Positions 3,179 through 50,978 of a stretch of DNA of 64,000 nucleotides are shown in pieces. Position numbers and translations under genes: made by a program. A model generated the notes under the pieces. It did no database searches. It had not been told where the DNA came from and saw only the letters and a list, made by a program, of their open reading frames with translations. The stretch comes from Minisyncoccota bacterium (GTDB lineage Bacteria; Patescibacteriota; Minisyncoccia; Phycocordibacterales; UBA918), in NCBI GenBank assembly GCA_041389045.1, contig JAWKSQ010000001.1, forward strand, positions 11,063 through 75,062, in the 5' to 3' direction. Within the stretch, counting starts at the first letter, position 1. Each line of letters starts with the position of its first letter.

Positions 3179-3372
3179 CTTCCAATCGATTGGAAGTGTG
3201 GCAGTCTTAGTTCGGGAAGGTTTTTGACTTAGAGTTTGGGTTGAACTATTTCTTCAACTTCGCTAAATCCAGTACTTCATCAATATGGATTTGTTCCACG
3301 AAGTCTGGAACGTGAGAAACGAGAATCATGGCGCCTTTGTAGTCGTGAAGGGCCTTGGCAATAACAGGAATG
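3179..3372. repeat. Second copy of the ~195-bp direct repeat (the functional 3' end of ABC-F)
   Basis: It pairs with 1923..2117. Both copies begin with the palindrome cttccaatcgattggaag. Confidence 0.8.
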
Positions 3373-4727
3373 TGGCGGAAGTTGATATGGTTGGTTGGTT
3401 CGTCGAGAATGAGTAGTCCCGGCTTTTCCATGGTGAGTTTGGCAAAGGCCACCAAGCCTTTTTGCCCCTCAGAGAGATTACCAACTTTAGTTTTCATCAC
3501 ATCACCAAAGAGTAGGAAACCAGCGGCAATCGAACGCATTTCTTCTTCAACTTTTCGTCCCATTGAATCCATCAGAGTTTCAAACACGGTTTTATCAAAA
3601 GCTAGGTTAGAAAAGTCTTGCCGATAGTAACCAATCTTTACTCCCTCCGTTACATGCTCTCCCTTGGCATGACCTGAAGCTAACTTCTCGAGCAAGGTCG
3701 TCTTTCCAATACCGTTTGGACCAACTATCTGCAGGTGCATACCACGCTTGAGAACCACCTCTGTTTCAACTTCTTTTGGTTCATGATTTTTTATAACAGT
3801 AACTGAAGAAAGTCTGACGACTTCAAGGGGAATGTCGGCGTGTGGTTCGATAGTGAATGGGCGAATAGTTTTATCCTCACGTCTAACATCCACTTTATTC
3901 TCTTCCGCTTCTTCTATTTCGTCACGCATCCGCTTGGCTACTAAACGCATTTTACCTCCCTTACTAGCAAAGTAGTTCACTTTGTCTTTATTGGCTTGAA
4001 TTTCTTTCGCGAGTCGCGCGTTTTCACGTTGCTCCTTTTCTACTTGAGCGGCAATATCTTTAACCACTGCGTGATAGTTACCATTGTACTGTTCGACTTG
4101 TCGGTTTTGGGTATTTAAATAAAGTACCCCGTGTGTGAAAGCATTAAGGAAATCAGCATCATGAGAAATCACTAAAACGGTTTTTTTGTATTCCTTAAGA
4201 AAGATAGTTAAGTGCTCGATACCAGCCACGTCGAGATTGTTGGTTGGTTCGTCTAAGAGTAGGACGTCAGGATTTTGGATGAGGGCTTGGGCTAAAAGTA
4301 ACCGAGCTTGTTGTCCACCCGAGAAACTACCAATGATTCTGTCTTTGAAAGTTTCTTTTTGCTTATCAGTTGGAGTGAGATTTACAATCTCGAGAGCTGA
4401 ATCAATCCGTGGATCAATGTCGTACATTTTCTCTGCAAAACATTTCGCAAAAAATTCTCGGACAGTTAGCCCCATTTCATTGCGAGGAATAATCTGCCGA
4501 GCAATAGCGATAGTGGTTTTGGGTTCGATATTTATATCTCCTTCATCAGGTTGACGGTCTCTAGTAATGAGAGAAAAAATAGTACTTTTACCAGCCCCAT
4601 TTTGACCCATAAGGGTTAGCTTGGCACCACGACGCACGACAAAATTTGCCTCCTTAAGAATAGGCCTGGTCGCATCATACTCGTACGACACATCTTTAAA
4701 AACTATAATTCCGTCGCCTCGTGACAT
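3246..4727 (-). CDS. ABC-F family ATPase (two ABC domains, EttA/Uup-like)
   Basis: Two Walker A motifs (GQNGAGKST, GPNGIGKTT), two LSGG signatures (FSGGQQ, LSEGQK) and a linker with coiled-coil character. Confidence 0.92.
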   Translation of the reverse strand: MSRGDGIIVFKDVSYEYDATRPILKEANFVVRRGAKLTLMGQNGAGKSTIFSLITRDRQPDEGDINIEPKTTIAIARQIIPRNEMGLTVREFFAKCFAEKMYDIDPRIDSALEIVNLTPTDKQKETFKDRIIGSFSGGQQARLLLAQALIQNPDVLLLDEPTNNLDVAGIEHLTIFLKEYKKTVLVISHDADFLNAFTHGVLYLNTQNRQVEQYNGNYHAVVKDIAAQVEKEQRENARLAKEIQANKDKVNYFASKGGKMRLVAKRMRDEIEEAEENKVDVRREDKTIRPFTIEPHADIPLEVVRLSSVTVIKNHEPKEVETEVVLKRGMHLQIVGPNGIGKTTLLEKLASGHAKGEHVTEGVKIGYYRQDFSNLAFDKTVFETLMDSMGRKVEEEMRSIAAGFLLFGDVMKTKVGNLSEGQKGLVAFAKLTMEKPGLLILDEPTNHINFRHIPVIAKALHDYKGAMILVSHVPDFVEQIHIDEVLDLAKLKK

Positions 4728-13286: not shown

Positions 13287-14174
13287 CTAGTCCTCCAACC
13301 AAACCTCTGTACCATCACTTTTAAAGATTATATTTCCATCGGTTGCGGTATTCATAATAGTACTACCGAAATTTTTCACCCTATCGATAACCTCTTGATG
13401 TGGATGACCATAACGATTATCTTTACCCGCTGAAACTACTGCATACGCTGGTGCCACCATTTCCAAAAACGAATCAGCGGTAGAAGTCTTTGAGCCATGA
13501 TGTCCAAGCTTAAGCACTTCACTTTCTAAGGTTTCACCGTAAGTCTTTACCAGATATTCTTCAATCCCTAGCGGAGCATCCCCAGTCAACATAAATTCTA
13601 TATCGCCGTATTTAAGTTGCACCACAATCGATGAGGTATTGCTTTCCCAATTACTAGTATCACTGCTTGGCGACAGAATCATAAGTGTAGTGGAAGCCCC
13701 GAGACTAATAACATCTCCCGCTTTAGCCAAGTATGTACGTGCTCCCTCGTCACTTTCCATAAAAGCAAAAGCCGAAGAAACTGCCGTATCACTTTCATTT
13801 TCTGTCCGAATTATTTCCGACACCTGATACCGACCAAGTATGTCTACCAACCCACCAATATGATCCTTATCCGGGTGAGTAGCTAAGACTACGTCAATCT
13901 TCCTATCCCAAAATGGCATTACCTTACTTACTTCCCGGAGTACTCCAGCATCTGGCCCACCATCTATAAGCAGTTGCACGCCATCTGGTGTCTCCACAAA
14001 AATGGCATCTCCTTGCCCAACATCAAGAAAGGCGACTGTGAGTAAACCTTCGGATGAAGAATTGCCGAGCGAAGCTAACTGACCCTCACTAAAATAAGGC
14101 GTAACAAAGACTGTTAAGATAAAAATCCCCAGTCCACCCAGTGTAAAAAGCCGAAACCTAAAAAAGCGAATCAT
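13287..14174 (-). CDS. MBL-fold metallo-hydrolase, stand-alone ComEC C-terminal-domain-like protein with its own N-terminal TM segment
   Basis: Motifs DVGQGDAIF, THPDKDHIGG, GHHGS and GHPH. Confidence 0.8.
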   Translation of the reverse strand: MIRFFRFRLFTLGGLGIFILTVFVTPYFSEGQLASLGNSSSEGLLTVAFLDVGQGDAIFVETPDGVQLLIDGGPDAGVLREVSKVMPFWDRKIDVVLATHPDKDHIGGLVDILGRYQVSEIIRTENESDTAVSSAFAFMESDEGARTYLAKAGDVISLGASTTLMILSPSSDTSNWESNTSSIVVQLKYGDIEFMLTGDAPLGIEEYLVKTYGETLESEVLKLGHHGSKTSTADSFLEMVAPAYAVVSAGKDNRYGHPHQEVIDRVKNFGSTIMNTATDGNIIFKSDGTEVWLED

Positions 14175-15260: not shown

Positions 15261-16926
15261 CTAACGAAAGAATATTGGTGTGTCAGCCATTTCTTTATCC
15301 TTGTCTGTACTCGCATTTAACTTCTTCATTCCCAATTCTTCATCAAATTCTTCTTCAATGGTCCAATCTGCCAAATCATCCGATTTCGAACTGCTCCCTA
15401 AAGTTCCAACCAATAAATTTTGCGCTAAGTCACCCTGACCTGGCCCACCCAACACTTGATGACTTCTCCATAGAAAGTAACCTAGTATCACATACGAGAT
15501 AATTACTAAATAAAATGGAAAAGCTGGTACCACCATGGAGCTAAAGGCAAAACCTCCAAACCACAACGCCACCTCATTTATATATTGGAGAACAAAGTAG
15601 GTCGGTACAGCCAAAGGTCCCGAGACAGCTAGCGATACAAAACCAACTACCCCAGTCATAAAAGTTAGAAGCATCGCGACAGGTACGATTGGCAACACTA
15701 GGACATTCACCAAAATTGCCACTAACGAAAATTCTCCGATGTGGTAAAGCAAGAGTGGTAGCACAGCTAACTGAGTAGAAAGCGTGGCCATAAAGAATGT
15801 CTTCAAACCATATTTGCCAGGAATGAAAGTAAAATATTTTTCGAGAGCCGGGGCTACCAGTATCAGGCCGAGTGTGGCGAGAATGATAATTGAAACCCAA
15901 TATCATAAACAAGAAGATATGGATTAATGATCAACATGACTACCCCAGCCAGCATCAAGGCTCGCAATACTAAATAGATCCGACCATAGGCGTGGGCACA
16001 AGAAGTAAGCTGGCCATTACTGAAGCCCTAACCACCGTGGCCGAAAAACCAACTAGTATTGCAAAGAGACAGATAGCCACTACCCCAGCGACCACTCTAG
16101 CTCTCGGGCGCAGAAAGTATCCTAGTACAAACATCACAAACGCTACGACCAACATGACGTTATAGCCGGACAGAACTACAATATGAATAATCCCGGTTTT
16201 ACGAAAGGCTAACTCCAGGTCATCCCCCAAGGCTCGCTTGACCCCAAGCAGTAGTCCCTCACCAAGACCAACCGCTGGTTCAGCAATTACTTCTTCAAGT
16301 TTGCTCATAAACTTCTGCTTGAAACTAAGCAGACTGGCAACAATTACATTTCCCTCGCCACGACGTAACACTTCTATTTCTGCAAAGGAAATTTGGTACT
16401 TTACTCCCTTCGCGAGTAAGTAACCAGGGTAATTAAAAGTCCGACCAAGGTCGGTCACAAAGGCTTCTGGTTTTTGTAGTTTACCTTCAACTCGTAGCAC
16501 ATCTCCATAACTTACTTCGTGGTAACGGTCAGTCGTGACCAAAATTATTTCTCCGTTTTCGATTTTCACATAGAGGTGTAGTGAGTTGGCTCTTCTATCT
16601 GGTTCACGATCGACTCGGCCTTCGATTATTACTTTTTGCTCTACCCTATTATCAAAAACTGACGTAGCTAAACTTTCTGCAGTCACGACGAATCTACCGG
16701 CCCCTAGGACAAAAAATACGAGTGCCAGGCCAATAAAAAGAAAGGCACCAGAAGAAGAGTCATCACTAGCACGCTTCCAAAGTAGAGCTAAAACCACCGA
16801 AAGTAGCAAAAGCCAAGCTAAAGTCGGTAAGGGAGTAGAGAAAAGCGATGCTACAAAAACTCCGAGAAAAAAGCCCAGGGTAGCTACGTAAAAGTGTGAA
16901 ATAGACATTAAAATAATCTTTAACAC
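15261..16926 (-). pseudogene. comEC: ComEC/Rec2 competence channel (DUF4131 + Competence domains) interrupted by two 1-nt frameshifts
   Basis: 16926..15970 ends at ...SLLLVPTPMVGSI*. A shifted frame gives AHAYGRIYLVLRALMLAGVVMLIINPYLLVYDIGFQLSF. A second shift gives ILATLGLILVAPALEKYF...MATLSTQLAVLPLLLYHIGEFSLVA, which continues in 15806..15261. Confidence 0.8.
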
Positions 16927-20038: not shown

Positions 20039-21163
20039 CTACTTTCGTAACGCATCGAGTACATCAGTCGTACCATGTTCAAGTAAAGTCAGCATCGAGC
20101 CACCGCCAATTGAGACGAAGCCGAACTTGTCATTTAAACCAAGCTTCTCCACCGCTGCTACAGTGTCACCACCACCAACCACACTAAAGGCATCAGCCTC
20201 TGCGATTAGTTTTGCGGTTTCTTCGGTTCCTTCTTCAAAACCAGCTTCGTAGTTACCAAACGGACCATTCCATAAAACCGTCTTCGCTTCGGCGATATAA
20301 TTGGCCAACAGTTTAACTGTTGCAGGACCAAGGTCAAAGATTTTTTCATCAGGTAGAACTTGGTCTACGGCTTTAGTTTTAACTCCATCTGGACCTTCGA
20401 CCACTACATCAACTGGTACCAATAACTTCTTATCATTAAGGAAAGGGGTTCCTACCAAAGAGACGTCCGATACCAGTGACTGACCCACTTCAAAGCCTTG
20501 AGCCTTTAGTACATCGTTGGTGAGTGCTCCGCCAATAAAAACTTGGTCATACAATTTTAAATATTTTTCTACCAGTGGCATCTTGGTTTCGAATTTAGCC
20601 CCACCAAGTAGAAAGAGTGACGGACTAGTCGGGTTCATTACTTGTTCCAGTTGAATAACTTCTTCCGCTAGTGTTAGTCCGGCATAGGCAGGAAGTCGTT
20701 TCGCTAAACCTAAAGTCGAGGCGTGGTTACGATGAGCTTCAGCAAAAGCATCATTCACATATAACTCGCCATAACCAGCCATAATCTCAACTAGTTCAGC
20801 TGAATTTTCTTCTTCACGACTATCTTGTCTTAAGTTTTCACACATCACAATCTCACCATCTAACATGGCATTTTGTACCCCAGCAAAAGCAGGGTCGGTG
20901 ATGGCTCCACCCCATTTCATTGGCAAAGTCTTACTAAGCTCAGCAAATACGGGTTTGAGTGAATCTGTTTCCTTTCGTCCGATATGAGAAATAATAATTA
21001 CTCTGGCGCCTTTATCTTTAAGGAAAGTCAAAGTTGGTAGAGCTCTCTGTAGTCGATAAGAATTACGCACCAATTCTCCATCAAGCGGTACATTGCAAGA
21101 AGACCTCACGATCACATACTTACCTTTAAGGTCACTCACTTCAGTCACTAGTTTTAAATCCAT
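20039..21163 (-). CDS. pgk: Phosphoglycerate kinase
   Basis: Full-length PGK pattern (…IISHIGR…, GGAKFETK, GGGDT…). Confidence 0.95.
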   Translation of the reverse strand: MDLKLVTEVSDLKGKYVIVRSSCNVPLDGELVRNSYRLQRALPTLTFLKDKGARVIIISHIGRKETDSLKPVFAELSKTLPMKWGGAITDPAFAGVQNAMLDGEIVMCENLRQDSREEENSAELVEIMAGYGELYVNDAFAEAHRNHASTLGLAKRLPAYAGLTLAEEVIQLEQVMNPTSPSLFLLGGAKFETKMPLVEKYLKLYDQVFIGGALTNDVLKAQGFEVGQSLVSDVSLVGTPFLNDKKLLVPVDVVVEGPDGVKTKAVDQVLPDEKIFDLGPATVKLLANYIAEAKTVLWNGPFGNYEAGFEEGTEETAKLIAEADAFSVVGGGDTVAAVEKLGLNDKFGFVSIGGGSMLTLLEHGTTDVLDALRK

Positions 21164-21165
21164 AT

Positions 21166-21927
21166 TTACTTAGTACTAATTGTTGCTTTTATAATTGTCA
21201 CAAATTCTTCAGCCTGCAAACTAGCGCCTCCAACCAAGAAACCATTCATGCCACCATTCTTATGCAAGTCTTCCGCGTTACTTGATTTGACTGACCCACC
21301 ATAGAGTAAACGTACTTTTTCAGCCGTCTTGCGATCATAGATTTTAGTCAAGATACTCACAATAAATATCTGCATTTCCTTAACATCATCGGCGGTCGCC
21401 GTTGCACCAGTACCAATGGCCCAGATCGGCTCGTAAGCAATAACTAATTTTTGTACTTGCAGATTGGTTAAACCTTGTGTCAGTAGGCGGATTTGACTTT
21501 CGATGCCATTAAAAAATGTACCTTGCTTATCGCGCTCTTTTTCGCCAATACAAACAATTGGTGTCAGTTTTCTTTTTAGTAGAGCGTGGATTTTTTTATT
21601 GATTTGTTCATCTGTTTCACCCATGGCCCTTCTTTCGGAATGGCCGACAATTACATACTCCACGCCAAATGGGGCCAGTAAAGCTGGACTAACCTCTCCT
21701 GTAAAAGGCCCTCTATCTTCAAAATATGTGTTTTGGGCGCCAAGAATTATATTGGTGCTTTTGGTCATCTTGGCAACCTCAGCCGTAAATATTACTGGCG
21801 GAGCAATGACTACGTAAGCCTCAGTTATCTTCATTACTCTTTTCTTGATACCACTAACAAGATCTTTCACTTGAACTTAAAGTTGTTGCTTCCAGTTGCC
21901 GACAACTAACGCAGGTTTGTGTTTCAT
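21166..21927 (-). pseudogene. tpiA: Triosephosphate isomerase with an in-frame TAA at codon 17
   Basis: The ATG at 21927 gives MKHKPALVVGNWKQQL, then TAA (21877..21879), then VQVKDLVSGIKK...IAPP...GAQN...VGHSERR...EPIWAIGTG. The catalytic N and K lie upstream of the stop. Confidence 0.85.
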
Positions 21928-21977
21928 ACCTGAAATAGCATAAAGAAAAAAGCGCAGACCTATGGTCTGCGCTTTTT

Positions 21978-23417
21978 CTATCCGTCTTGTCGCCAATCCT
22001 TAAAGATATAAACATCGGAAGTTTCTGGCGTCAGTGGTGGCGGACTATCTATTTGATTGCGGTCAAAAGAGTCTGTTCCACCAGGAAAACCACTAACCGA
22101 TACTCCGCCACTGACCCAATTTGTTACCGCTCGCATGTTTGTCACCACAGTACCCAAAGTATTTAGGTTATTCCTTTGCACATAAGGCTGATAGGTACCA
22201 TTTAAATAAGGTCCGTAATAGTGATTGCGACCAAAGCGTCCGTTTTGAGCAATAAATATTCCACTGATGGTCATGTTATTTGGCACATCAAGCCCAATGT
22301 CTAGGTCATCCTCAGCAATAACCAAAAGACCAGCTGGAGAATTAGGTACGTACGTTATGTTTCCAGCCAAAACTACATTCGTTTGCGCCCCAGAAGACAG
22401 GTTATATACCAAAGTTACCTTTTGGTTCACAGCACCACTGACCCAAACCTTGTCCTCAAAATACAGAGAAGTGGGCAATTATTATTTATTGTAATTGTTC
22501 CTAAAAGGACTGAGGCAGTGATAGCATTCCTCTCACCTGAATGCCAACCTTCGGCGCTCGAATAAGAGGTGTAGTTGTAGGTGTTAGTGACACGGTAAAC
22601 CCTAGCGGTACTGTTACCATTAAAAACCACTGAGTAACCATACGCACCGGACGGTCCATAATATCTACCGCCGTTATTTTGCGCCAAACTTTTCATGGTA
22701 CTTAAGTCCAAAGTTATACCGGCAAAATCAATTGGTGAAACAGGGAAGGAGAACAAACCTGGATTAGCCTGACCACTGGTGGTGTAAACCCCATCAACAA
22801 CTTGCGAGGGTGAACAACCATAAGAACTATCACAAGTCCAACTGGCTTGACCGCTACCAACTACCGAGTTATGAGCTGCTTCCATTCTTATACCCTGATT
22901 AGAATGGAGCGGACCAATTACTGTACCTCCAGCCCCATACCAAACACCAGCGTTAGTAATGAAGGAATACTCAGCCACTGTTGGTCTCGTATATTTAGCG
23001 TGAACAGTACTTTTTGCATCAGGATTTTGATAAGTGTGTCCAGTAGAAGTTACATCAATAGAAGAAATGCTTCCACAGTAAGTACTGCTAGCGATAGTTA
23101 GTGCGAACTCACCTATATTACCCCCTTCTGGATCTTTGTAAGGATGAATATATGGACTAGGGGTAGTAGTTCCTGTTTGGTTGTCACATCTCCAGGAAAG
23201 TGAGATAAGTACCATTTATAATAATTGAGACCAGCTTCAGCAATTTCGGTGGCTCGTTGTTGTTCGTAACGAAAATTAACTACTTGATTTTGAGTCACAA
23301 TATAACCAATAAAAGAACTAACCATTACCATAAAAACCCACCAAAAACTAGTACCAGCACCAGGAGGTAACCAGCCGATTTATTTTTATTTATTACATTT
23401 CTACTTGACTGGTTCAT
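21978..23417 (-). pseudogene. Large PilX-N-like pilus-associated protein broken by at least 3 frameshifts
   Basis: The fragments MNQSSRNVINKNKSAGYLLVLVLVFGG / VMVSSFIGYIVTQNQ...AEAGLNYYKWYLSHFPG / DNQTGTTTPSPYIHPY...TITINNN / PTSLYFEDKVWVSG... join end to end when the frame is shifted. Confidence 0.7.
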
Positions 23418-23425
23418 ATTTTCAA

Positions 23426-24030
23426 CTATAGATTATCCTTCAGATTACGAGGCGCAATACTTGACCTGAGCATAAACTCCCCAGGGAAACGATTCTGATC
23501 AATATTAACGATAAATTTGGCTACCGTAGCGAACATCAATTACCGGTGAAGTAGAACTAAGAGCCATGCCAGCATTATCAAAATAGTAAAAAGTAGATGT
23601 CTCGCGCAATATTCTGAACATACAATGATAACGTATTGGTAGTGTCTGGTGTCGACAAATTATAAGTTGGTGGATTACCAGAAGCCTCGTATGTACTTAT
23701 AGAGAGGGTGCTAGACAGTTTATACCTAACATATTCTACAGAATCATCTAAATCAGTATCACTATAGTAAGAAAATTCATGTTCACCAATAACAGCGATT
23801 GGGTATGAGCCATCTTCTCCAGTTGTGTCTCTTACATCACGATTCCATTGCGTCATGTCAAGGCCTAGCATTTTCTGTCTCTTCTGCTTGTTCTATAGTG
23901 TAAGAATTTAGTTTATAAATCAGTTATGCCATTTGAAATAACTAAAAAGTAAGACCGTGGCAATTCCCACAACCACCACTGCCTCAATCAGGGTCATGCC
24001 GGTTATAGAACTTTTATTATTTATAAACAT
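23426..24030 (-). pseudogene. Pseudopilin (prepilin-type N-terminal methylation motif) with at least 5 frameshifts
   Basis: The gene starts MFINNKSSITGMTLIEAVVVVGIATVLL. The end VAKFIVNIDQNRFPGEFMLRSSIAPRNLKDNL is PulJ-like. The pieces are recovered only by hopping frames. Confidence 0.7.
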
Positions 24031-24036
24031 AAAAAT

Positions 24037-25791
24037 TTATAAAGTAAGTAATGTTACATTTAATTGCACATCACCATCGATATTAACATCATTAAATGTG
24101 TGTGATTGATAACCAGGTGCGCTGATATTGAGAACGAAGTCAGTCTGAGGCAAAGTGACCCCAGGAAAGTACACCTTGCTTACAAGCGCCGGTATATCTA
24201 GTTTGATTATATCCAGACCTAGTAAGAACAGCTTCGATACCAGGAATTGGTTCACCAATAATATCCGTACTTTACTCAGTGTGTTATTAACAGCCGGTGT
24301 AACTATTACTTCTAAATCTCCGTCGACTCCAGCCTGATGGATGAATGGGTAGGTTCCGCGCAACCCTGTGCCACTTTATACCCTGCAACGCTGACATGAT
24401 ATTCGTCGAACTCAACCGCCCCCAGTAATCTCTCCATTGACATCAGTAGTAGTACTAACATCATATTTATAAATAAAGTTAGCTGTTGCATCAGTACCAA
24501 TTATCTTACTACCTCTAACTCCCATACTTTGATTAGTCATTAGGGTTTCAGCTTCACGATAATAAACACCGACTTCATCGATAATAGGTGTTACGGACAC
24601 ATCGCTTGTTTCTAGCACTACACCAACAACAAAGCTTGGGTATAGAGTCGGACTTAGGTTGGAAATATCAATAATTGAATCAGCAAAACCGCCACTATTC
24701 CCCGGCAAATCTGTATCAGGAATTATTGTATATGGACCGGCACCGGCGCCTGTGTAAAAATAAACTTTATAATCCGTGTCGGCTGGAACATTTGCTGCTA
24801 CTCTAACTGCCTGCCAGGCTTCAATTGCAGTTGGTATAACTTCGAAATAAACCTCCCCGTAAACATCATAAACCCCGGCCGTGTCAGACAATACTAATTC
24901 GTCACCATTGCTAGCCACACTACTGTAAGAAGTGATACCTCCCAAAGAAGTAAAATCTTCAACAAACCGACTATCGGTCACACTAGACTTGAGTACTAGG
25001 TTAATGTCACTTAACTCACCAATTTGGAAAGTTAGCGTAGAAATGTCAGATTCAAGTACTGAAAATGGTGACAAAGAAGGGTTCGGATTTGTGGTAGTGG
25101 CCTCGTAAGTTTTATCGACAGAGTATGACTTCCCCGCGATTGGACCAGTCACTGATACTTCATAATTACTATCAACTGGTGTTCCAGAAAACAAAGCTTC
25201 TCCATTTACATCAGTTATCTTAGTGACATCAATCGGACTTGTAGAACTAGCATTAGTTAAACGCACTCGTGCTCCAGGCAAAAGATTGGATTGATCATCA
25301 ATCACGTTAATTCGTACCGTTCCTCCACCAGCAGTGGTCTCAATCGACCGAGGGACAATATTACTAATAAGTGCAATCTGACCATTCACACCATTAATTT
25401 CCCAAGTATATTCCACTTTTACTCTTTTATAATCTGAGGGAATACCATTAGTATCTGCCACGTTCAGTCCATCTGCCGGGTCATCAACATACTCCACCAA
25501 GACTCTCTCATTAAACTCAATCCCATTAAGACTAATAATGTTGTTTTGAGGAATAGTACCGGGAGGAATACCAGCTATCGTACCAACGTTGTTATATGGT
25601 AGTGATCGAAAATATTCCATTCGATCATTGGCGACTGAAATGGCACTGAGTTTTGAACGTGATAAATTGATCAAACGTAGTGAATATTGAAACGAAGCAA
25701 ACATTGCCCCGAAGATCAAAACAGAAATCGCTGACACAATAATCACTTCCACCAAAGTGAAACCTGACTTTTGTGTCAAAGCTTTATACAT
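24037..25791 (-). pseudogene. Large pilin-like protein (prepilin N-terminus + Ig/carboxypeptidase-regulatory-like repeats); 3' ~125 codons frameshifted
   Basis: The motif MYKALTQKSGFTLVEVIIVSAI is a class III signal. 24412..25791 is intact. The frame then shifts at the ggggg run (…EITGG|AVEFDEYHVSVAGYKV…) and at least twice more. Confidence 0.7.
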
Positions 25792-25798
25792 GACAACT

Positions 25799-27025
25799 TT
25801 ATTTAAGTCCGTCTGACATTGAATAAATCGGCGCAATCATAGCCAGTGCAAAGAACCCTACACCCGCACCAATAAAGACCATTAAGAGTGGTTCAATAAT
25901 GGTGGATAGGTCTTTGGTTTTTCGCTCAACTTCTGTCTCATAAAATAAAGCTAGCTCACCAAGCATACCAGAAATCTGTCCAGTCTCTTCACCCACGAGG
26001 ATCATTTCGCCGACTAGAATCGGATATAAGTCGGTACGCTCCACAAACACTTCAGACAAAGCAGTACCTTTTTCAACGCGTTTTCTAGCTTCTCGCAGAA
26101 TTTCTTTATAATAAACATTTTGTACTACTTCCTCAGTAATTTCGATGGCTTGTATCACGTCCACTCCGGAGTTAAGTAGCGAAGAAAGGGTTCTCGCAGT
26201 CCGGGCAGCATTGGTCTCTTTGGCCATAGTCCCGATTACTGGTAACCGAGTAACCGTCCAAGAAACTGTGGTTTTCCCTATTCTAGTGCGCAAGAAATAA
26301 ACCACCGACAGCACCAAGCCGATAATAGAAGAAAGTGCTAGTACCGTGTGGGCCACAAAGAAATCACTTGATTCAATGAGAAAAGTAGTAGTGGCTGGTA
26401 ACTCCTTATTCATTCCTTTAAAAACATCTGTGATTTGGGGCAATACGAATATCATCATGAGAATAGCAATAATCACCATTACCGTAATGACAATACCCGG
26501 ATAAATCATGGCCCCTTTGATCTTCTTAATCAGATTATTGGAGCGTTCCATCTGTACTGACAGTGTCTGCAGTGACTCCGCCAAATTTCCACTTTCCTCA
26601 CCAGACTTAATCATCGCCACATAAAGATCACTAAAGACTTCTGGATATTCCTTGAGTGTTTCAAATAACTGATCACCACTATTGATACGTTCATTAATCC
26701 TTTTGATGACACTTTTTAGTTTTGGGTTCTTACTCTGCCTTTCGATCACCGAAAGGGCTCTAGTGACTGTTAAACCCGCGTTAAGCATCGAACCCAGGTT
26801 ACGAGTCATCATGATGAGCTCATCTGATTTTACTCGACTAAGCAGAATGTTGAGCTTTTCAACATTCAGAAATTGTTTATACCCACCTGAGGCGTTATCT
26901 ATACTGGTGACTTTATGTCCGTCACGACGAGCGACGTCGTAGACCGCGTAACGATCGTCGGCAGTGACAGTCTCGGTCACACTATTACCTTCTTGATCTT
27001 CTCCAGTATAGGTAAAAGTTGGCAT
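25799..27025 (-). CDS. pilC: Type IV pilus platform protein PilC (GspF family)
   Basis: Duplicated T2SSF domain architecture, three TM regions, 408 aa, immediately downstream of pilB. Confidence 0.9.
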   Translation of the reverse strand: MPTFTYTGEDQEGNSVTETVTADDRYAVYDVARRDGHKVTSIDNASGGYKQFLNVEKLNILLSRVKSDELIMMTRNLGSMLNAGLTVTRALSVIERQSKNPKLKSVIKRINERINSGDQLFETLKEYPEVFSDLYVAMIKSGEESGNLAESLQTLSVQMERSNNLIKKIKGAMIYPGIVITVMVIIAILMMIFVLPQITDVFKGMNKELPATTTFLIESSDFFVAHTVLALSSIIGLVLSVVYFLRTRIGKTTVSWTVTRLPVIGTMAKETNAARTARTLSSLLNSGVDVIQAIEITEEVVQNVYYKEILREARKRVEKGTALSEVFVERTDLYPILVGEMILVGEETGQISGMLGELALFYETEVERKTKDLSTIIEPLLMVFIGAGVGFFALAMIAPIYSMSDGLK

Positions 27026-27028
27026 AAA

Positions 27029-28780
27029 TTATTCGTTAATGACTCGAAGAACTTCTTCGATACTGGTATAACCTCGAGCCGCTTTGTAAATACCGTCCTC
27101 CATCATGGTGAGCATCCCCTCTTTTCGTGCCTGTGTCTCCACTTCGTCTCCGGTCTTACCGGCTATAACCATCTCCTTGATTGAAGGGGTCATTTCCAGC
27201 ACCTCATGAATGCCCATACGACCCTTGTAGCCATCTTCGGTTTCCCCCTTTTCTTTAGGGTGATAAAAAGGAATGTCGTTCCAAGTAGCAGAGTCAGCAA
27301 CAATTTTCTCTTCCTTTAGCGTCTTAAGCACCAGATCCATATTAACGTGTTCTTCTAATTCTTCCCTTTCAGCCTTGGACAAGACATAAGGTAGCTTATC
27401 GTCAGCCAACTTACGCACTAGACGTTGCCCAATTGCTACTCGTAAGGTCGATACAAGCAAGAACGTCTCCACTCCCATATCAGTCAAACGAGCGACTGTA
27501 CCAGCCGCTGAGTTAGTGTGTACTGTGGCCAACACCAAGTGACCTGTTAAAGCGGCGTTAATACCTAGACTAGCTGTCTCTTGGTCACGGATTTCCCCCA
27601 CCATAATAATGTCTGGGTCCTGACGCATAAGTGACCTTAGGCCCGCAGCAAAAGTAAAACCAATTTCCGGCTTAACCTGACTTTGGTTAATACGAGGCAT
27701 TTGATATTCGATTGGATCTTCAATGGTTGAAATATTTACTTCTGGTGAATTGAGTAAATCTAGAACCGTATAAAGTGTTGTCGACTTACCAGAACCAGTT
27801 GGTCCAGTTACTAAGATTATACCGGTGGTAGCCCTAGTGGCTTTATGAATACGCTCGAGCGTAGAGCCATGGAAACCAATTCCTTCGAGAGAATAACCAC
27901 TGCGGTTCTCGCGCAAAAGACGCATGACGATTTTCTCGCCATAAAATACCGGTAGGACCGACACGCGGAAGGCGACTTTTTGACCATCCATCTCCATTTT
28001 GAAACGACCGTCCTGCGGTAACCGCTTTTGGTCCAACTTAAGATTGGAAAGTACCTTGATACGAGCCACCAGAGTTCCTGCCGCATGCTTAGGCAGTTTC
28101 ATGGCATCGTTCAAAATACCGTCGATACGATATCTTACCACCACCTCTTCCTCCATCGGCTCAATATGAATATCAGATGCACCCTGAATAATAGCGTGAC
28201 GTAAAAGTGTATCAATAATACGCACTACCGGTAGGTCTTCGGCCATTTTCTTGAGATCACTTTCAGACATTTCTTCCCCATTTTCTTCCGCAATCACTTT
28301 GAGAGCTGAAGCATCCTTCATAATGATGTCACCAAACTCATCTTTCAGAGTTTTTTGGTATTGCTGAAGCGCCATTCGCATTGACTCAGTATCAGTCAGT
28401 CGAGATAAAATCTTTAGACCAACTTTCTTACGCACAAAATCAATCGCTGGTAAGTCAGCTGTATCAAGCATCGCTACTTCAAGTTCCTTATCATTTTTCT
28501 TATAGGCAATGATGTTGTGGTTACGCGCTACCGGTTCAGGAATGAGAGCTAATACATCAAAATCAATTTTAATATTTTTGAGAGAAACAAATGGAATACC
28601 GAGTACGTAAGATTCTATGCGTCGCATATCATCTTCGGTCATATGACCTTGTGAAATAAGAGCTTCAGCCAGGGTACGTCTTTCATCCTTAGCTACTTTT
28701 TCCACGGCCGAAATATCGGACTTTTTAATAAGTCCGGCATCAAGAATAAAACGCTTTAGTTGTTCATCTTGTATACGCAC
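27029..28780 (-). CDS. pilB: Type IV pilus assembly ATPase PilB (GspE family)
   Basis: T2SSE N-terminal domain, Walker A GPTGSGKSTT, Asp/His boxes, 583 aa. Confidence 0.93.
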   Translation of the reverse strand: MRIQDEQLKRFILDAGLIKKSDISAVEKVAKDERRTLAEALISQGHMTEDDMRRIESYVLGIPFVSLKNIKIDFDVLALIPEPVARNHNIIAYKKNDKELEVAMLDTADLPAIDFVRKKVGLKILSRLTDTESMRMALQQYQKTLKDEFGDIIMKDASALKVIAEENGEEMSESDLKKMAEDLPVVRIIDTLLRHAIIQGASDIHIEPMEEEVVVRYRIDGILNDAMKLPKHAAGTLVARIKVLSNLKLDQKRLPQDGRFKMEMDGQKVAFRVSVLPVFYGEKIVMRLLRENRSGYSLEGIGFHGSTLERIHKATRATTGIILVTGPTGSGKSTTLYTVLDLLNSPEVNISTIEDPIEYQMPRINQSQVKPEIGFTFAAGLRSLMRQDPDIIMVGEIRDQETASLGINAALTGHLVLATVHTNSAAGTVARLTDMGVETFLLVSTLRVAIGQRLVRKLADDKLPYVLSKAEREELEEHVNMDLVLKTLKEEKIVADSATWNDIPFYHPKEKGETEDGYKGRMGIHEVLEMTPSIKEMVIAGKTGDEVETQARKEGMLTMMEDGIYKAARGYTSIEEVLRVINE

Positions 28781-30854: not shown

Positions 30855-31123
30855 ACTTTACATCCCACCCCTTCTTATATATAGTGCTCGGCTTGTGCCG
30901 GGCATTCTTCGTGAGAAATTTGAAAAATATCCAGAAAAACCTTTATTTTTAAGCTTATTTAGATTATTAACCTAAGAAATTATTATGTTTGACCTAAAAG
31001 TAATCAATGCCGTTCTTGAAGAAATGGAGACAGAACGTGGTATTGCTAAAGAAAAATTAATCGACGCTATTGAGCAGTCTCTAGCTACCGCCTACAAAAA
31101 GGAGTTTGGGAAGCGTGGCCAAA
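30855..31123 (+). repeat. Direct repeat copy 1: nusA upstream region plus the first 46 codons
   Basis: It is identical to 33365..33649 except for 2 substitutions and a 16-nt indel, counted by eye. Confidence 0.9.
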
Positions 31124-31155
31124 GCAAAACCGCTATACATTGGGAAACAAAATAG
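30985..31155 (+). pseudogene. Truncated nusA 5' fragment (46 NusA codons fused to 10 foreign codons)
   Basis: MFDLKVINAVLEEMETERGIAKEKLIDAIEQSLATAYKKEFGKRGQ is followed by SKTAIHWETK*. Confidence 0.85.
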
Positions 31156-31421: not shown

Positions 31422-31535
31422 TTGCTTGACCACCAGACGATGGCGATTGTCGGCATTCCAGACGTTGTCGTTCTCGAAGCGGTTCACGTTGGCCTTGAGC
31501 TTAACACCATTCACGTTGACGTTAGCGACGAACAG
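31422..31535 (-). repeat. DGR template repeat (TR), 114 nt, adenine/AAC-rich on the minus strand
   Basis: It aligns without gaps to 31856..31969. There are 20 mismatches, 18 of them at TR adenines. It reads ...ANVNVNGVKLKANVNRFENDNVWNADNRHRLVVKQ. Confidence 0.85.
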
Positions 31536-31852: not shown

Positions 31853-32448
31853 CTATTGCCTGACCACCAGACGAGGGCGACTGCCGGCATGCCAGACGTC
31901 GTTGCTCTCGAAGCGGAACACGCAGGCCTCGAGCCCCACACCATACACGTCGACGAGAGCGACGAACAGCTCGCCATCCACTTCAAACAAAAAGAAGGTA
32001 CCGTAGCCTTCCTGCCGAAGTGAGTCGCTGTGCGAGCGACAGAACTCCACGATCTGCCCCTGTGTGAGACAGAGCTTACGCGGATCACCGAGCGAACCGA
32101 ACAGCGTTTTGAATGTGCCGTTGCGGGTCATTTCGTGCACGTCAACTTTGGCCTCGGCGGTGTCTTCGCCAGTGACATCGGTGCCCCAGTTTTTGAAGTC
32201 ACTGTCGATGTAGCCGGTGAAGACCTTTGTGGCCTTGACCAGTGTGGCGTCACCCTTGGTTGAGGGGAGCGTGATGGTTGCGAGGTGGCGCAGATACGAA
32301 TACTTCTTGTTGCCACCAAGTACCGATTCTATTTCTCGAAACTGCTCGGGAGTCGCTTGCCCAAACTTGGTGACAAGCTCGGCATTCCAGCCGACTGCCT
32401 CCAGCTTTTGACCAGCTGGGCGATTTGGTTGAAGCTGTATGAAGACAT
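31853..32448 (-). pseudogene. DGR target protein (~198 aa, GC-rich) with the VR at its C-terminus and a 1-nt frameshift at codon ~15
   Basis: The ATG at 32448 gives MSSYSFNQIAQLVK. One extra A in the aaaa run (32406..32409) joins this to LEAVGWNAELVTKFGQATPEQFREIE...VFRFESNDVWHAGSRPRLVVRQ*. The length of 596 nt equals 3n-1. Confidence 0.75.
31856..31969 (-). repeat. DGR variable repeat (VR), the last 38 codons of the target ORF
   Basis: See the TR alignment. VR codons CTC, GAC, TAT, GGG, GAG, TGC, TTC, AGC, CAT, GGC, AGT, CCT and AGG replace TR AAC/AAT/AAG/GAC/CAT codons. Confidence 0.85.
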
Positions 32449-32814
32449 GTCTTCATTCCTTTCCGGCACATGTGCCATTTTGCCAGCGGGTTTCCAAAAT
32501 TGGATTTACCATAGCTTTAAAGCAATAATTGAATTACAAACTTAAAGCTATGGTAAAAGTTTTTAATGAACTGCTTGCCCACCTTTAAATACAGTCATAG
32601 AATAAACATCTATGAACCAAGGAAACAAAAGAGAACATCTACACTAACTCAGGCAACTATAATACCACATTTCTGACTATTTAGCAAGGCATAATAAAAA
32701 CTTGGTTCATATCATCCAGACCCTGGGCCTTTACGTAGGGCGGGAGTTTGAGATGTTGGACGAAGTAAAGGCTTAATAGCGAGAATAAGCAGGCTTGTGA
32801 AACTGAGAAATTAA

Positions 32815-33364: not shown

Positions 33365-33649
33365 ACTTTACATCCCACCTCTTCTTATATATAGTATAAG
33401 GACTCATGAATGCTCGGCTTGTGCCGGGCATTCTTCGTGAGAAATGTGAAAAATATCCAGAAAAACCTTTATTTTTAAGCTTATTTAGATTATTAACCTA
33501 AGAAATTATTATGTTTGACCTAAAAGTAATCAATGCCGTTCTTGAAGAAATGGAGACAGAACGTGGTATTGCTAAAGAAAAATTAATCGACGCTATTGAG
33601 CAGTCTCTAGCTACCGCCTACAAAAAGGAGTTTGGGAAGCGTGGCCAAA
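33365..33649 (+). repeat. Direct repeat copy 2 (native promoter/5' end of the intact nusA)
   Basis: It pairs with 30855..31123. Confidence 0.9.
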
Positions 33650-34932
33650 TCATAAATGCTCACTTTGACCTCAACACTGGTACCACTACTTTCAACCAGA
33701 TCAAGATTGTGGTTGACGAAGACATGCTTAAGCCAGAGCTAGCTGATGGTGAAGAAGACGTCGAGGAAGAAGACGAAACTCCAGCTGATGGTGAAGAAGA
33801 AAAGAAGATTCGTTTTGACGATGAAAAGCATATTATGCTTTCTACCGCTAAGATGATTAAGAAAGATGCCCAAGTGAACGAAGAATTGGTTTTCCCACTA
33901 GAACCACGAGACGATTTTGGTCGCATTGCTGCTCAAACAGCCAAGCAGGTGATCGTCCAAAAAATTCGTGAGGCTGAAAAAGAAGCAGCTTTAGCTGAAT
34001 TCGGACAGAAAGCGGGTGACATTGTCATGGGACATGTTCAGCGCTTTGAGCGAGGGAATCTCTACGTTGACCTTGGTCGCGTAACGGCCATCATGCCTTA
34101 TGATGAGCAAATCCCGGGTGAAAGATATAAACCAGGCGAAAGAATCCGTGCCCTTCTGGTAGCCGTTGAAGAAACTTCACGCGGTATTTTCCTCAAGCTT
34201 TCACGTTCTCATCCTGATTTTCTATCTGGTCTATTTGCGATTGAAGCACCTGAGCTCCAAACCGGCGTAGTTGAAGTAAAGGCGGTCGCTCGCGAAGCTG
34301 GTGCCCGGTCTAAGATTGCCGTTTATGCTTCTGACCAACACATTGATCCAGTAGGGTCTCTAGTAGGACAACGAGGTGTTCGAGTATCGACGGTCATGAG
34401 TGAACTAGGTGGCGAGAAAATCGACATCATCGAATGGTCGCCAAACGTATCTGAGTTTCTGGAAGATTCTCTTTCTCCAGCTCAAGTACTTTCAATTAAA
34501 ATTGTTACTGAGCCAGATGCAGAAAAGAACGAACGCGGTCACGCTATTGCTGAAGTAGCTCCAGACCAACAGTCCCTAGCCATTGGTCGTGGTGGACAGA
34601 ACGTTCGCCTCGCTGCCAAACTGACTGGTTGGAAGATTGATATCGTTTCAGCGCAAAGTGGCGAAGCTCTAGCCGAAGCTGACGCTAATGGAAAGGTGGA
34701 CTTAGAGGCTGATGTCGACACTCCGGTCGGAAGTGATGAAGATGTACTGGAAAATGAAGACGCTACGACAGTAAATCCAGAGCTACCAAGTGAAGATGAA
34801 GCGACAAATGACCGTGACACCAATCCTGACTCCGAGGAAGAAAACGAAATCGATACTCCAGAAGAAGCAGAAGAGCTGGTAGCGGACGAACAAGACAAAG
34901 CTGACGTAGAGAAAGATGAAGAAAAGAAGTAA
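33511..34932 (+). CDS. nusA: Transcription termination/antitermination factor NusA, with an acidic insertion and an acidic C-terminal tail
   Basis: NusA N-terminal domain, S1 (GDIVMGHVQRFERGNLYVDLG), and KH1/KH2 (GQRGVRV, GRGGQNVRLA). Confidence 0.93.
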   Translation: MFDLKVINAVLEEMETERGIAKEKLIDAIEQSLATAYKKEFGKRGQIINAHFDLNTGTTTFNQIKIVVDEDMLKPELADGEEDVEEEDETPADGEEEKKIRFDDEKHIMLSTAKMIKKDAQVNEELVFPLEPRDDFGRIAAQTAKQVIVQKIREAEKEAALAEFGQKAGDIVMGHVQRFERGNLYVDLGRVTAIMPYDEQIPGERYKPGERIRALLVAVEETSRGIFLKLSRSHPDFLSGLFAIEAPELQTGVVEVKAVAREAGARSKIAVYASDQHIDPVGSLVGQRGVRVSTVMSELGGEKIDIIEWSPNVSEFLEDSLSPAQVLSIKIVTEPDAEKNERGHAIAEVAPDQQSLAIGRGGQNVRLAAKLTGWKIDIVSAQSGEALAEADANGKVDLEADVDTPVGSDEDVLENEDATTVNPELPSEDEATNDRDTNPDSEEENEIDTPEEAEELVADEQDKADVEKDEEKK

Positions 34933-42837: not shown

Positions 42838-43468
42838 CCACCGGACTTAGGTCCGGCGCTTTAATTTCATCTAGTCGGATGAACCATCTGCCGGATTAAG
42901 CCGGCTGAACTAGTTGCTAGGAGATTGGTTTGTTAAATAGTGATGGTTGATCAACTTGATTATGATGATCTTGATGCTTCAGTGCCGACGGATAATCATT
43001 TCATCTAGACCGATCGTAGAGACGAAATAACCTCTATAGTTAGAGTGATTCTTTTTCATAGAGACCATGAGCACGTTTTATTTTCTTCTTCATCAAGCTG
43101 AGCTTTTACCTTTGATTATTTGCATCAGGTACGAGACTGAATCCCTCGGAGAGCACTCAGTATTAAGTGGATATGATCATCTTGGATGTTTAGTTCGATT
43201 ATTTCCCAGTGTCTGTATTTAGTGATTGATTCAAAGGTACGTCTCAATTCATCTTTAACCTTTTGTGGTCCTAGTACCTTGCCTCGGTATTTTGGAGTCC
43301 AGACGAGATGGTATTTCATCTCGTAACAATGTGCTAGTGTTTTAATGGTACGTTGCGCATACGTATTTAAGTTATTACTAAAGCCGACCGCCCGCTTCAC
43401 TGTATGCGTTGCACTTCAAACGTACTCTCCGGTGAAGCCGGAGGGTTTTTAGGGATAACAAAACCCCG
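42838..43468 (-). mobile_element. Degenerate IS200/IS605-family element (tnpA relic plus end hairpins)
   Basis: Hairpins are at 42840..42857, 42890..42905 and 43426..43446. The Y1 transposase relic lies between them. Confidence 0.6.
42979..43400 (-). pseudogene. tnpA: IS200/IS605 Y1 (HUH) transposase TnpA, multiply frameshifted
   Basis: …MKYHLVWTPKYRGKVL…DDHIHLILSA is followed, in other frames, by PRDSVSYLMQIIKGKSS and YRGYFVSTIGLDEMIIRR. Confidence 0.8.
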
Positions 43469-48014: not shown

Positions 48015-48130
48015 TTAGAATGTCCAACTCAGGAACTAAGGTTCCTGAGTTTTCATTACCAATCCGAGCCGTAGGAAACTGAATCGGCAGGTCATACGAC
48101 ACCGTAACATAAAGTCGTAAGGAGAAAATC

Positions 48131-48927
48131 ATGCCATACCTTTTTATTCTGGGAGCTAAGGATCCAGAAATGGATCGAATTGAAGAAATTTTGCAAAATG
48201 CTAATCAAGTATTCACACAGGCTAAAGTAAACGGTGTTCGAGTACACGCCGGAAATACCTACACGGTCGACGAGATACCTAACCTGAACCAGTACACGCC
48301 GGTCTGGATTGAATGCTCTAAGTTTGAACCTGGACACGGCATCTACATTGATCACCACCGCCCGGGTGATGTTGGTTATAGCAAACCACCAGCCCACTTT
48401 TGGAAAGCCTCTTCCTTGGGACAACTTCATGAGCTACTTGACCTGAAACCTTCGCATAATGACATTGTACTCGCCGCCATGGATCATTGCTTTGCCCCTG
48501 CTCTACAAGGTGAATGTCCTGGAGTTACTCCTGAAGAAGTGCGCTTCATCAAGTATCTCGAGATAGAAAAAACAACAGGTGCGAACTTGCAAGAAATCAA
48601 CTCTCTCGTAGACTTGTATACTCAAACACTTTCTACCACACCTACTGTGAGGATTGGGAGCGAAGACGTATATGATTTGAGGTCTTTGTACCTCGGTGAG
48701 GGTATTCCTGAATCTGCTCTGTGCGCAAGTTGCTGTTGCCGGTACAAAGCAGTGCCCTACTGTATCATCGAGACAAAATCAACGCTCCTCAGAAATGGTC
48801 TCTTGCAGGAATGAACTCTCCAGATACAGTTCGCGCCTTTAAAGAAACCTGGGGACCTGCCAGGGGACTGGTAAAGATTTATAGTGTTCCCGATCGTGGT
48901 TATGCAGGAGGATACCTGCCAAACTAA
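48131..48927 (+). pseudogene. Hypothetical protein (contains an IDHHRPGD motif) split by one frameshift near 48715
   Basis: The two overlapping ORFs 48131..48814 and 48721..48927 join. The total length is 3n-1. Confidence 0.5.
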
Positions 48928-50407: not shown

Positions 50408-50575
50408 AAGTAGAATAAGTATATCCAGTTTTTAGTAACATTTTTTGTTATCGGGTGAGAGGAATCGAGACTTACAGTTTCTGTGTAGCTTTTTTGGATA
50501 TTTAGGTCCGCTTTTGCTCCCAAGCTATCTCAAAGCGCTTTTCGATCCCTCCGAAAGAATGTAGAATATATACAT

Positions 50576-50978
50576 ATGGAAAAATAACAATTGAAGTAAC
50601 TATAGAAGCTCCACTTAAAAAGTTTGGAATTATTGGACTAATGTTGAACACATTGAAGGTTGGGCCTTTGCATCGGATGATTGGGGTGCAGAAGGTTTCC
50701 AATCACCTACAAAGGACGGAACTTTCTCAAGCCGTATGTTTGCGAAAGATGGAAGTTCTGATTCATCTTTTCTGGTAAATACAATGAAGTGGTGGAAAAC
50801 AAATTATCTTGACTACATTAGATGACGGTAGAAATGTGGTGGTTAAATTTGAAGAACACCCACAGGAGTTCATATAACCCAAAGCTTTGAGCCTGAGTCT
50901 GAAAATCCGATCAAGATGCAACGTGACGGCTGGCAGGAATATTTGAACAACTTTAAGAAGTACACGGAGAATCGATGA
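50576..50978 (+). pseudogene. SRPBCC (AHSA1-like) domain protein, multiply frameshifted
   Basis: MEKITIEVTIEAPLKK… / …IEGWAFASDDWGAEGFQSPTKDGTFSSRMFAKDGSSDSSF / GKYNEVVENK / …PESENPIKMQRDGWQEYLNNFKKYTENR lie in different frames. Confidence 0.6.

Follow-up and report, generated by a model that had tools for sequence, protein, structure and literature searches.

Type IV/Com-type pilus operons of Patescibacteria (CPR) have reportedly been the subject of an experimental study in Saccharibacteria. Clusters of disrupted genes are found as pseudogenes in decaying symbiont genomes such as those of Mycobacterium leprae and Sodalis, and real pseudogenes of this kind show frameshifts together with nonsense mutations, larger deletions and raised substitution rates. 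A preprint on proovframe is said to deal with frameshift errors that stem from residual indels in long-read assemblies and MAGs. Frameshifts caused by residual indels are a defect that has been well documented for long-read assemblies and for MAGs (Sereika et al. 2022, PMC9262707). In the stretch of DNA analysed here (64 kb, referred to as the window) three consecutive genes downstream of pilC, named A, B and C in the following, can only be read with repeated changes of frame. We consider it likely, with a probability of roughly 80%, that these frame changes represent patches of poor consensus in the metagenome-derived 416-kb contig of a Paceibacterota MAG; the organism itself probably has intact copies of genes A, B and C.

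Locus layout and gene identities

The genes are arranged on the minus strand in the order pilB-pilC-A-B-C-tpiA-pgk, with the reading direction descending from position 28780 (Table 1), and the region is covered by the NCBI protein accessions MEZ4194809-18 with the locus-tag prefix R3B53. These were reached through cluster membership, exact searches of public contigs with PilC and protein A of the window having given no match. An earlier reading made from the letters of the DNA (the sequence-only reading) had described the three genes after pilC with the coordinates and order found here. The motifs GFTLVEV and GMTLIEA that it quoted were present, as was the C-terminus ...RSSIAPRNLKDNL, which was identical in orthologues. 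It was also right in calling pilB and pilC free of disruption, both being single ORFs with 0 shifts. PilB showed 97.6% aa identity over 583/583 residues to its orthologue in the intact related locus L001, and PilC showed 86.8% identity to the L001 protein.

Table 1. Coordinates and state of the features discussed, in window positions.
Feature	Position	Strand	State
pilB (GspE/PulE-family assembly ATPase)	27029..28780	-	single ORF, 583 aa, intact; MEZ4194817
pilC (T2SS-F family platform protein)	25799..27025	-	single ORF, 408 aa, intact; MEZ4194816
gene A, predicted prepilin-type, CarboxypepD_reg/Ig-like domains	24037..25791	-	585 codons, 4 frame changes
gene B, pilin-like, G/MTLIEA N-terminus (slash at the cleavage position)	23426..24030	-	~200 codons, 5 frame changes
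gene C, N-terminal hydrophobic helix, no recognised family	21978..23417	-	~479 codons, 3 frame changes
tpiA (triose-phosphate isomerase)	21166..21927	-	5' end damaged at 21874..21890, remainder intact
pgk	20039..21163	-	374 aa, intact; 90.4% identity to L001, 0 shifts; MEZ4194809
damaged tract	21874..24432	.	some 14 small indels across 2,559 nt, a density of about 5.5 per kb
comEC core (DUF4131 + Competence domain)	15261..16926	-	three frames, changes at ~15985 and ~15880
AHSA1/SRPBCC-like gene	50575..50975	+	three frame changes: ~50620, ~50789, ~50860

Gene A is a predicted type IV prepilin with a class III signal peptide, judged from its prepilin motif GFTLVEV and from profile matches of the L001 orthologue (22 bits on TIGR02532, cutoff 16.3) and of the repaired window protein (20.2 bits on PF07963 N_methyl, cutoff 21.2, E=4e-4). 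A Pfam search with the repaired protein further bore out the CarboxypepD-like repeats noticed earlier, with two stretches matching CarboxypepD_reg (PF13620, E=1.5e-9).

The labels 'PulJ-like' for gene B and 'PilX-N-like' for gene C found no support, as the respective family thresholds were not reached. The N-terminus of gene B with its GMTLIEA motif scored a sub-threshold 14 bits on PF07963 (cutoff 21.2), and its L007 orthologue a likewise sub-threshold 16.1 bits on TIGR02532 (cutoff 16.3). A full-length match to GspJ/PulJ was not obtained for gene B: the best score on TIGR01711 was 20.4 bits, obtained with the L007 orthologue, against an equivalog cutoff of 64.85. This match spanned profile positions 2-62 of 192 only, which is the shared pilin helix, and neither the window protein nor L001 B matched the profile. 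For gene C, neither the repaired protein nor its L001 and L007 orthologues had a hit in Pfam or NCBIfam at E<=0.05, PilX_N (COG4726) included, and a search for a PDB sequence match found none. In IMG a distant homologue, P0147, is named 'Tfp pilus assembly protein PilX', which we regard as a lead only.

Frame changes in genes A, B and C

Shifts were mapped by frameshift-aware protein-to-DNA alignment using proteins of four species as queries, and the queries from all four identified the same 12 shifts. With 4 in gene A (~24430, ~24355, 24266, ~24175), 5 in gene B (~23946, ~23918, ~23863, ~23607, 23525) and 3 in gene C (23338, 23180, 22467), the at least 11-12 frame changes in 2.5 kb claimed before were confirmed. 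Two extra short compensating shifts in gene B (~23705 and ~23692) are possible and appeared in one run only. The alignment controls gave 0 shifts in 13 comparisons, namely pilB, pilC and pgk of the window and ten cross-species comparisons on intact L001 DNA. In tblastn searches with the intact L001 orthologues, B and C were each recovered in three frames (E 1e-29 to 1e-177). The description of the trio as riddled with frameshifts needs correcting for A, which is intact over its first 459 codons (to 24415; 1.36 kb) and carries all 4 of its shifts in the final ~400 nt.

All 12 frame changes are indels of one or two nucleotides. The repaired frames of the three genes, together about 1,260 codons, contained 0 stop codons, and their lengths matched those of the orthologues (A 585 vs 585-586, B ~202 vs 193-206, C ~479 vs 471-481), gene A homologues in general measuring 582-590 aa. 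In the deposited annotation gene A is represented by a truncated 459-aa product (MEZ4194815), and for gene C a 262-aa fragment has been entered as the hypothetical protein R3B53_00205 (MEZ4194812).

Extent of the damage

The limits of the damaged tract do not match gene boundaries, most of A being spared and tpiA being entered. The flanks (pilB, pilC, the first 1.36 kb of A, and pgk) showed 0 shifts in about 5.5 kb, and the operon-wide rate predicts about 4.3 shifts for the 1,360 nt of A that are spared (Poisson P about 0.014). Such patchiness, set against the density within the tract, requires some local cause. Repeats or structural anomalies at the patch borders were not found.

At the 5' end of tpiA the window reads GNWKQQL*, where 4/4 orthologues compared read GNWKLNP, a universally conserved motif that the lesion destroys. 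Because ATTLSS in another frame of the window matches the orthologue's PTTSLE, the lesion is best described as two indels with a net loss of 2 codons; a nonsense mutation was considered and set aside, as the comparison with the four orthologues favours two indels. The deposited tpiA CDS restarts at GTG 21870, comprises 234 aa and matched Pfam TIM only from profile position 17.

At least two smaller patches exist in the window besides this tract, a number to be read as a lower bound. In comEC, the Pfam Competence profile was matched at positions 1-90, 93-128 and 129-266 in three successive frames, and the four joined fragments of the AHSA1-like gene matched PF08327 at positions 2-124 of 125 (34.3 bits, cutoff 22.1). 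The damage is thus not specific to minor-pilin genes, as had been implied, since tpiA, comEC and the AHSA1-like gene are also affected; the damaged tract is a stretch of DNA and not a functional unit.

Two other candidates were rejected. Pfam support was not found for a suspected frameshifted SAM-hydrolase-like gene at ~42-42.9 kb, and ORF 33502..34929, considered as a DGR reverse transcriptase, is NusA. The window also carries a DGR-like TR/VR pair and a 250-nt duplication.

Orthologous operons and sequence divergence

The comparison with operons of related genomes that had been proposed was carried out, and in 11/11 orthologous loci from other assemblies A (585-586 aa), B (193-206 aa) and C (471-481 aa) were intact with their order kept. 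Copies of A-B-C from different samples were 100% identical over 3.8-8.7 kb in three related species. Between species, no genes of the operon evolve faster than A, B and C, with 62-77% aa identity to L001 vs 87-98% for PilC and PilB. Gene A, the most divergent at 66% nt identity, is mostly undamaged, and gene B is about 70-77% identical to intact orthologues despite five to seven frameshifts in 600 nt. A same-species sequence for direct nucleotide comparison was not found in the collections searched; in the best relatives A and C were 71-75% identical (aa), and pilB 97.4% (aa) and 83.5% (nt). The only locus obtained by scanning contigs with protein A was L006, which is more distant (48% identity) and did not enter the comparisons.

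A relative-rate test counted amino-acid changes unique to the window vs those unique to L001, with L002 as outgroup. The counts did not differ significantly for A (55 vs 56) and C (31 vs 30), and the intact control pilC gave 18 vs 14. Gene B showed an excess in the window lineage (23 vs 9, p=0.013), which may reflect undetected short out-of-frame stretches.

Explanations for the frame changes

In bacterial mutation spectra substitutions are several-fold commoner than indels. Given this ratio, at least 12 genuine indels should therefore have come with several nonsense codons and with additional substitutions numbering in the dozens. What we found instead were small indels alone, in conserved sequence and in unrelated genes of the same contig, as expected of consensus indels, and a contig of 416 kb for a Paceibacterota MAG is compatible with long reads. 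The small insertion and deletion errors would be concentrated in the 2.56-kb patch 21874..24432 and would have arisen in sequencing or assembly, possibly where a long-read consensus lacked coverage or polishing or merged the variants of several strains. Three observations run counter to this reading. The strong patchiness of the errors calls for a local cause. The homopolymer association of consensus indels was not seen (2/12 sites vs 17.8% background), which is atypical of classic nanopore consensus errors, and gene B shows the lineage-specific excess of 23 vs 9. Among the three explanations offered by the sequence-only reading, corruption of the consensus or assembly error is nevertheless the best supported; genuine decay is disfavoured, and neither homopolymer miscalls nor hypervariability of surface proteins found support in the form proposed.

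One particular way in which the consensus could have failed is that it was drawn over divergent surface-protein alleles of co-existing strains, producing a chimera with spurious indels. We regard this as a possible, if rather doubtful, source of the errors. It would suit the patchy damage, the largest patch of which lies over fast-evolving pilin-like genes, and the DGR-like TR/VR pair and the 250-nt duplication hint at a locally variable genome. However, within-species hypervariability is not general to this operon, because the cross-sample copies of A-B-C in the three related species are 100% identical, and hypervariable surface proteins as the cause are accordingly unsupported in relatives. 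Moreover, gene A is the most divergent gene between species but largely undamaged, and the tpiA 5' end, comEC and the AHSA1-like gene do not encode surface-variable proteins.

Genuine pseudogenisation, in which the population would have lost its pilus tip/minor-pilin module and the lesions would be real mutations in dead genes, appears improbable. The lesions are undeniably part of the deposited sequence, reduced symbionts commonly lose surface structures, and the three genes evolve faster than pilB and pilC. Decay is disfavoured, however, because the lesions in A, B and C are indels only, nonsense codons, large deletions and length change all being absent, because substitution is not accelerated in A or C, because 78% of gene A is spared while the tract enters the gene of a core glycolytic enzyme (tpiA), and because identical lesion types occur in comEC and the AHSA1-like gene. 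The operon is also intact in 11/11 related loci, and a 600-nt gene that retains its similarity to orthologues through 5-7 frameshifts, as gene B does, is unlike neutral decay. With the exception of the substitution rate of gene B, none of the marks of pseudogenes looked for was found, neither nonsense mutations or larger deletions nor a raised substitution rate nor a confinement of lesions to dispensable genes.

Homopolymer-length miscalls typical of older nanopore chemistry would be another specific form of consensus error, and we think it very unlikely that they account for the lesions. A T5 or G5 run coincides with or lies close to two or three of the sites (23946, 23338 and perhaps 24415-24430); a shift at a G5 run, as reported before, is possible for the first shift, a GAGAGA repeat being the other candidate there. 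Sites within 4 nt of a run of at least 4 bases were not enriched (2/12 vs 17.8% background, binomial P=0.66), so that localised homopolymer miscalls are unsupported in the form in which they had been proposed. Insertions and deletions are both present, the tpiA lesion implies that several bases were lost, and the flanking genes have similar densities of 4-6-nt runs yet 0 shifts. The window has fewer homopolymers of at least 7 bases than its relatives; homopolymer compression was rejected as the cause, as intact genes have the same deficit.

There is similarly little to be said for real and very recent indels, left by a localised indel-biased event (for instance a tract of error-prone repair or synthesis) that would have inactivated the pilus tip genes and tpiA over 2.5 kb, with similar tracts elsewhere. 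Finally, programmed or phase-variable frameshifting, i.e. on/off switching by slipped-strand events or recoding of pilins, is effectively excluded although pilin and adhesin genes are classic targets of phase variation in other bacteria, as the sites number twelve or more and hardly any of them lies at a simple-sequence repeat, no tandem or significant local repeats were found in the shift region, the sites are absent from all orthologues, and housekeeping genes show the same lesions.

Comparison with known systems

The main value of these observations is that of a data-quality flag, and they probably have little biological meaning. Deposited fragments such as the 459-aa 'prepilin', the 262-aa 'hypothetical protein' and the 234-aa TIM without its catalytic N-terminus would mislead inference on gene content, pseudogenes and metabolism of the MAG and put truncated singletons into protein databases. 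Were the frameshifts real, they would point to an unusual, clustered indel mutagenesis through which a CPR bacterium lost glycolysis and its pili for host attachment.

With the pseudogene clusters of decaying symbionts the window shares the presence of several disrupted genes in the small genome of what is presumed to be a symbiont, but unlike in these clusters nonsense mutations and larger deletions are absent and substitutions are not raised in A and C. Like the pilus operons of Patescibacteria, the locus has pilB and pilC followed by pilin-like genes with predicted class III signal peptides, an arrangement kept across Paceibacteria and Nomurabacteria relatives. It differs from these operons in that the trio A, B and C adjoins tpiA-pgk, a lineage-specific arrangement, and from Com/GspJ/PilX minor pilins in that B and C fall below every family threshold. 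Compared to the known errors of long-read or hybrid assemblies, the sites in the window are not concentrated at homopolymers and are clustered in patches rather than spread contig-wide. Otherwise the likeness to such errors is extensive: small indels split conserved genes into fragments in adjacent frames, gene length and similarity to orthologues are kept, unrelated genes are hit, and the fragments have been deposited as separate 'hypothetical' or truncated CDSs.

Frame changes in the pilin-like genes

Three-frame translation of the region of genes A, B and C, the three pilin-like genes between pilC and tpiA, showed that protein-like sense jumps among frames. By tblastn, the B and C proteins of L001, one of the intact orthologous loci, each matched the window DNA in three frames (E-values 1e-29 to 1e-177), and its PilB, PilC and Pgk matched in one frame each, with 97.6, 86.8 and 90.4% identity. 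A custom frameshift-aware protein-to-DNA alignment with queries from four species mapped 12 shifts, the same set under each query species; two more short out-of-frame stretches in gene B were suggested in one alignment run. Zero shifts were found in 13 of 13 controls, comprising pilB, pilC and pgk of the window and ten cross-species comparisons of similar divergence on intact L001 DNA. The 11-12 frame changes claimed in the sequence-only reading were thus borne out, as were its gene coordinates, its quoted motifs and the undisrupted state of pilB and pilC.

These lesions are real in the sequence but had been slightly under-reported, since tpiA, comEC and an AHSA1-like gene are also damaged. 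Gene A begins with 459 codons of clean ORF and carries all four of its shifts within the last ~400 nt; its first 1.36 kb holds none where about 4.3 were expected (Poisson P about 0.014, our own calculation). At the other end the damage runs beyond gene C into tpiA, which delimits a damaged tract of 21874..24432 with about 14 indels in 2,559 nt. The catalytic N-terminal motif of TIM, GNWKLNP in four of four orthologues, reads GNWKQQL-stop in the window, and the orthologues' PTTSLE sense is found as ATTLSS in a different frame, so that tpiA would carry two indels, net -2 codons. The deposited TIM (234 aa) restarts at a GTG and matches the Pfam TIM profile from position 17 only. The limits of the damage do not follow gene limits, and no repeat or structural feature was found at the tract borders.

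The contig that holds the window is 416,375 bp long and belongs to a metagenome-assembled genome at NCBI, under the name Candidatus Paceibacterota bacterium. In the public record the fragments are entered as separate CDSs, with four CDS numbers (MEZ4194811-14) at a place where relatives have two genes.

Table. Genes of the pilus locus and other features of the window; shifts in genes A, B and C are from the frameshift-aware alignment
Feature	Position	Strand	Frame changes	Deposited product or basis
pilB	27029..28780	minus		583 aa, MEZ4194817
pilC	25799..27025	minus		408 aa, MEZ4194816
gene A	25791..24037	minus	~24430, ~24355, 24266, ~24175	truncated, 459-aa 'prepilin', MEZ4194815
gene B	24030..23426	minus	~23946, ~23918, ~23863, ~23607, 23525	
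gene C	23417..21978	minus	23338, 23180, 22467	262-aa 'hypothetical protein' R3B53_00205, MEZ4194812
tpiA	~21927..21166	minus		truncated TIM, MEZ4194810
pgk	21163..20039	minus		MEZ4194809
comEC core (DUF4131 + Competence domain)	15261..16926	minus	two, ~15985 and ~15880	
AHSA1/SRPBCC-like gene	50575..50975	plus	three, ~50620, ~50789, ~50860	
IS200-type Y1 transposase tnpA, broken	43343..42982	minus		profile search
ABC-F ATPase gene	3246..4727	minus		

Further lesions and duplications in the window

The lesions listed outside the damaged tract are a lower bound and not a complete census of the 64-kb window. In comEC, positions 1-90, 93-128 and 129-266 of the Pfam Competence profile lie in three successive frames, which indicates two shifts about 100 nt apart; the metallo-beta-lactamase part is a separate ORF (13287..14174), past two plus-strand genes. 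The AHSA1-like gene consists of four fragments in alternating frames, which when joined match PF08327 positions 2-124/125 with 34.3 bits (cutoff 22.1). For tnpA, a single frame covers only profile positions 3-60/121, and the conserved '...YRGYFVSTIGLDE...' of the C-terminus follows ~70 nt downstream in another; this is either a degraded IS or a further error patch. On the plus strand at 48113-48924, a 233-aa ORF that matches no Pfam family has an unusual Cys-rich tail at its end, and protein-like sense carries on in a different frame (48712..48924), a possible further frameshift.

The 3' end of the ABC-F ATPase gene (3247-3359) has an 85% identical counterpart of 114 nt at 1991-2104, about 1.2 kb downstream of the gene, which appears to be what remains of a partial duplicate. 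In a 250-nt direct repeat (30885-31134 and 33411-33660, 98% identical, copies 2,526 nt apart), the second copy spans the nusA promoter region and ~53 codons from the start of that gene (33502..34929), and the first copy holds a stranded duplicate of the same N-terminus (30985..31122). Either a true insertion accompanied by a long duplication or a further assembly problem might account for this repeat. It flanks on both sides a segment with a pair of 114-nt repeats (TR 31422-31535, VR 31856-31969; 82% identical) that, judged by sequence, looks like those of diversity-generating retroelements. Mismatches fall at adenines of TR, the first copy, in 18 of 20 cases, and VR forms the C-terminus (...WHAGSRPRLVVRQ-stop) of a ~195-aa ORF on the minus strand (~32452..31856). 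A reverse-transcriptase motif (YxDD / GNxxSQ) was absent from all frames of the 64-kb window, so the enzyme would be encoded elsewhere or have been lost.

Conservation and protein families

The order pilB-pilC-A(585)-B(~205)-C(~475)-tpiA-pgk is kept among Paceibacteria and Nomurabacteria relatives (orthologous loci L001-L011 compared with window 20039-28780), and the pilus genes adjoin two glycolytic genes with gaps of only ~45-90 nt. Genes A, B and C were intact in 11/11 of these loci, which represent at least five species and were taken from assemblies in NCBI, ENA and Logan, with the same synteny with tpiA-pgk. The intact comparison loci L001-L005 come from short-read assemblies and have the order pilB(583)-pilC(408)-A(586)-B(193/206)-C(475/471)-TIM-PGK.

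In a family search, repaired A, with its fragments joined across the frame changes, hit CarboxypepD_reg with E=1.5e-9, and its N-terminus matched that of prepilins. All pilin-helix matches of B were sub-threshold and C had no match in Pfam, NCBIfam or PDB sequences; the earlier labels PulJ-like (B) and PilX-N-like (C) therefore denote resemblance, not membership. With no curated family for either, B and C represent a pilin-like pair that is conserved and uncharacterised; a structural study of the two may be worthwhile in its own right.

Origin of the frame changes

Most probably the frame changes are not a biological feature. Lesion spectrum, rates, distribution and conservation together fit consensus or assembly error, to which we assign a probability of about 80%. 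Genuine decay of A-B-C, one of three explanations offered by the sequence-only reading, is unlikely. The lesions are small indels without exception, and the repaired frames (about 1,260 codons) contain no stops and equal the orthologues in length. In a relative-rate test that took L002 as outgroup, amino-acid changes unique to the window and those unique to L001 numbered 55 versus 56 in A, 31 versus 30 in C and 18 versus 14 in intact pilC, hence no extra substitutions in A or C; in B, the gene with the two suggested out-of-frame stretches that may underlie the excess, they numbered 23 versus 9 (p=0.013). Indels are several-fold rarer than substitutions in bacterial mutation spectra. It would therefore be very odd for a dozen real indels to have accumulated with neither additional substitutions nor nonsense codons. 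Decay would also have spared the first 1.36 kb of A, pilB, pilC and pgk, yet damaged tpiA, in a locus whose A, B and C are intact in all 11 orthologous loci.

The second explanation, hypervariable surface proteins corrupting the consensus, found no support in relatives: A-B-C copies from different samples were 100% identical over 3.8-8.7 kb within each of three related species, and the remaining damaged genes do not encode surface proteins. No same-species sequence was found in the searched collections. As to the third, localised homopolymer miscalls, 2/12 shift sites lie near homopolymers against a background of 17.8%, without enrichment, and both insertions and deletions are present; classic homopolymer miscalling is thus not the main cause. 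A programmed origin is extremely improbable. Within the favoured consensus or assembly error, this leaves a locally poor consensus, which might stem from low read depth, a patch that escaped polishing or the collapse of a variant. The value of the frameshift finding is as a quality warning on this MAG, and error of this kind is a well-known problem in long-read MAGs (PMC9262707).
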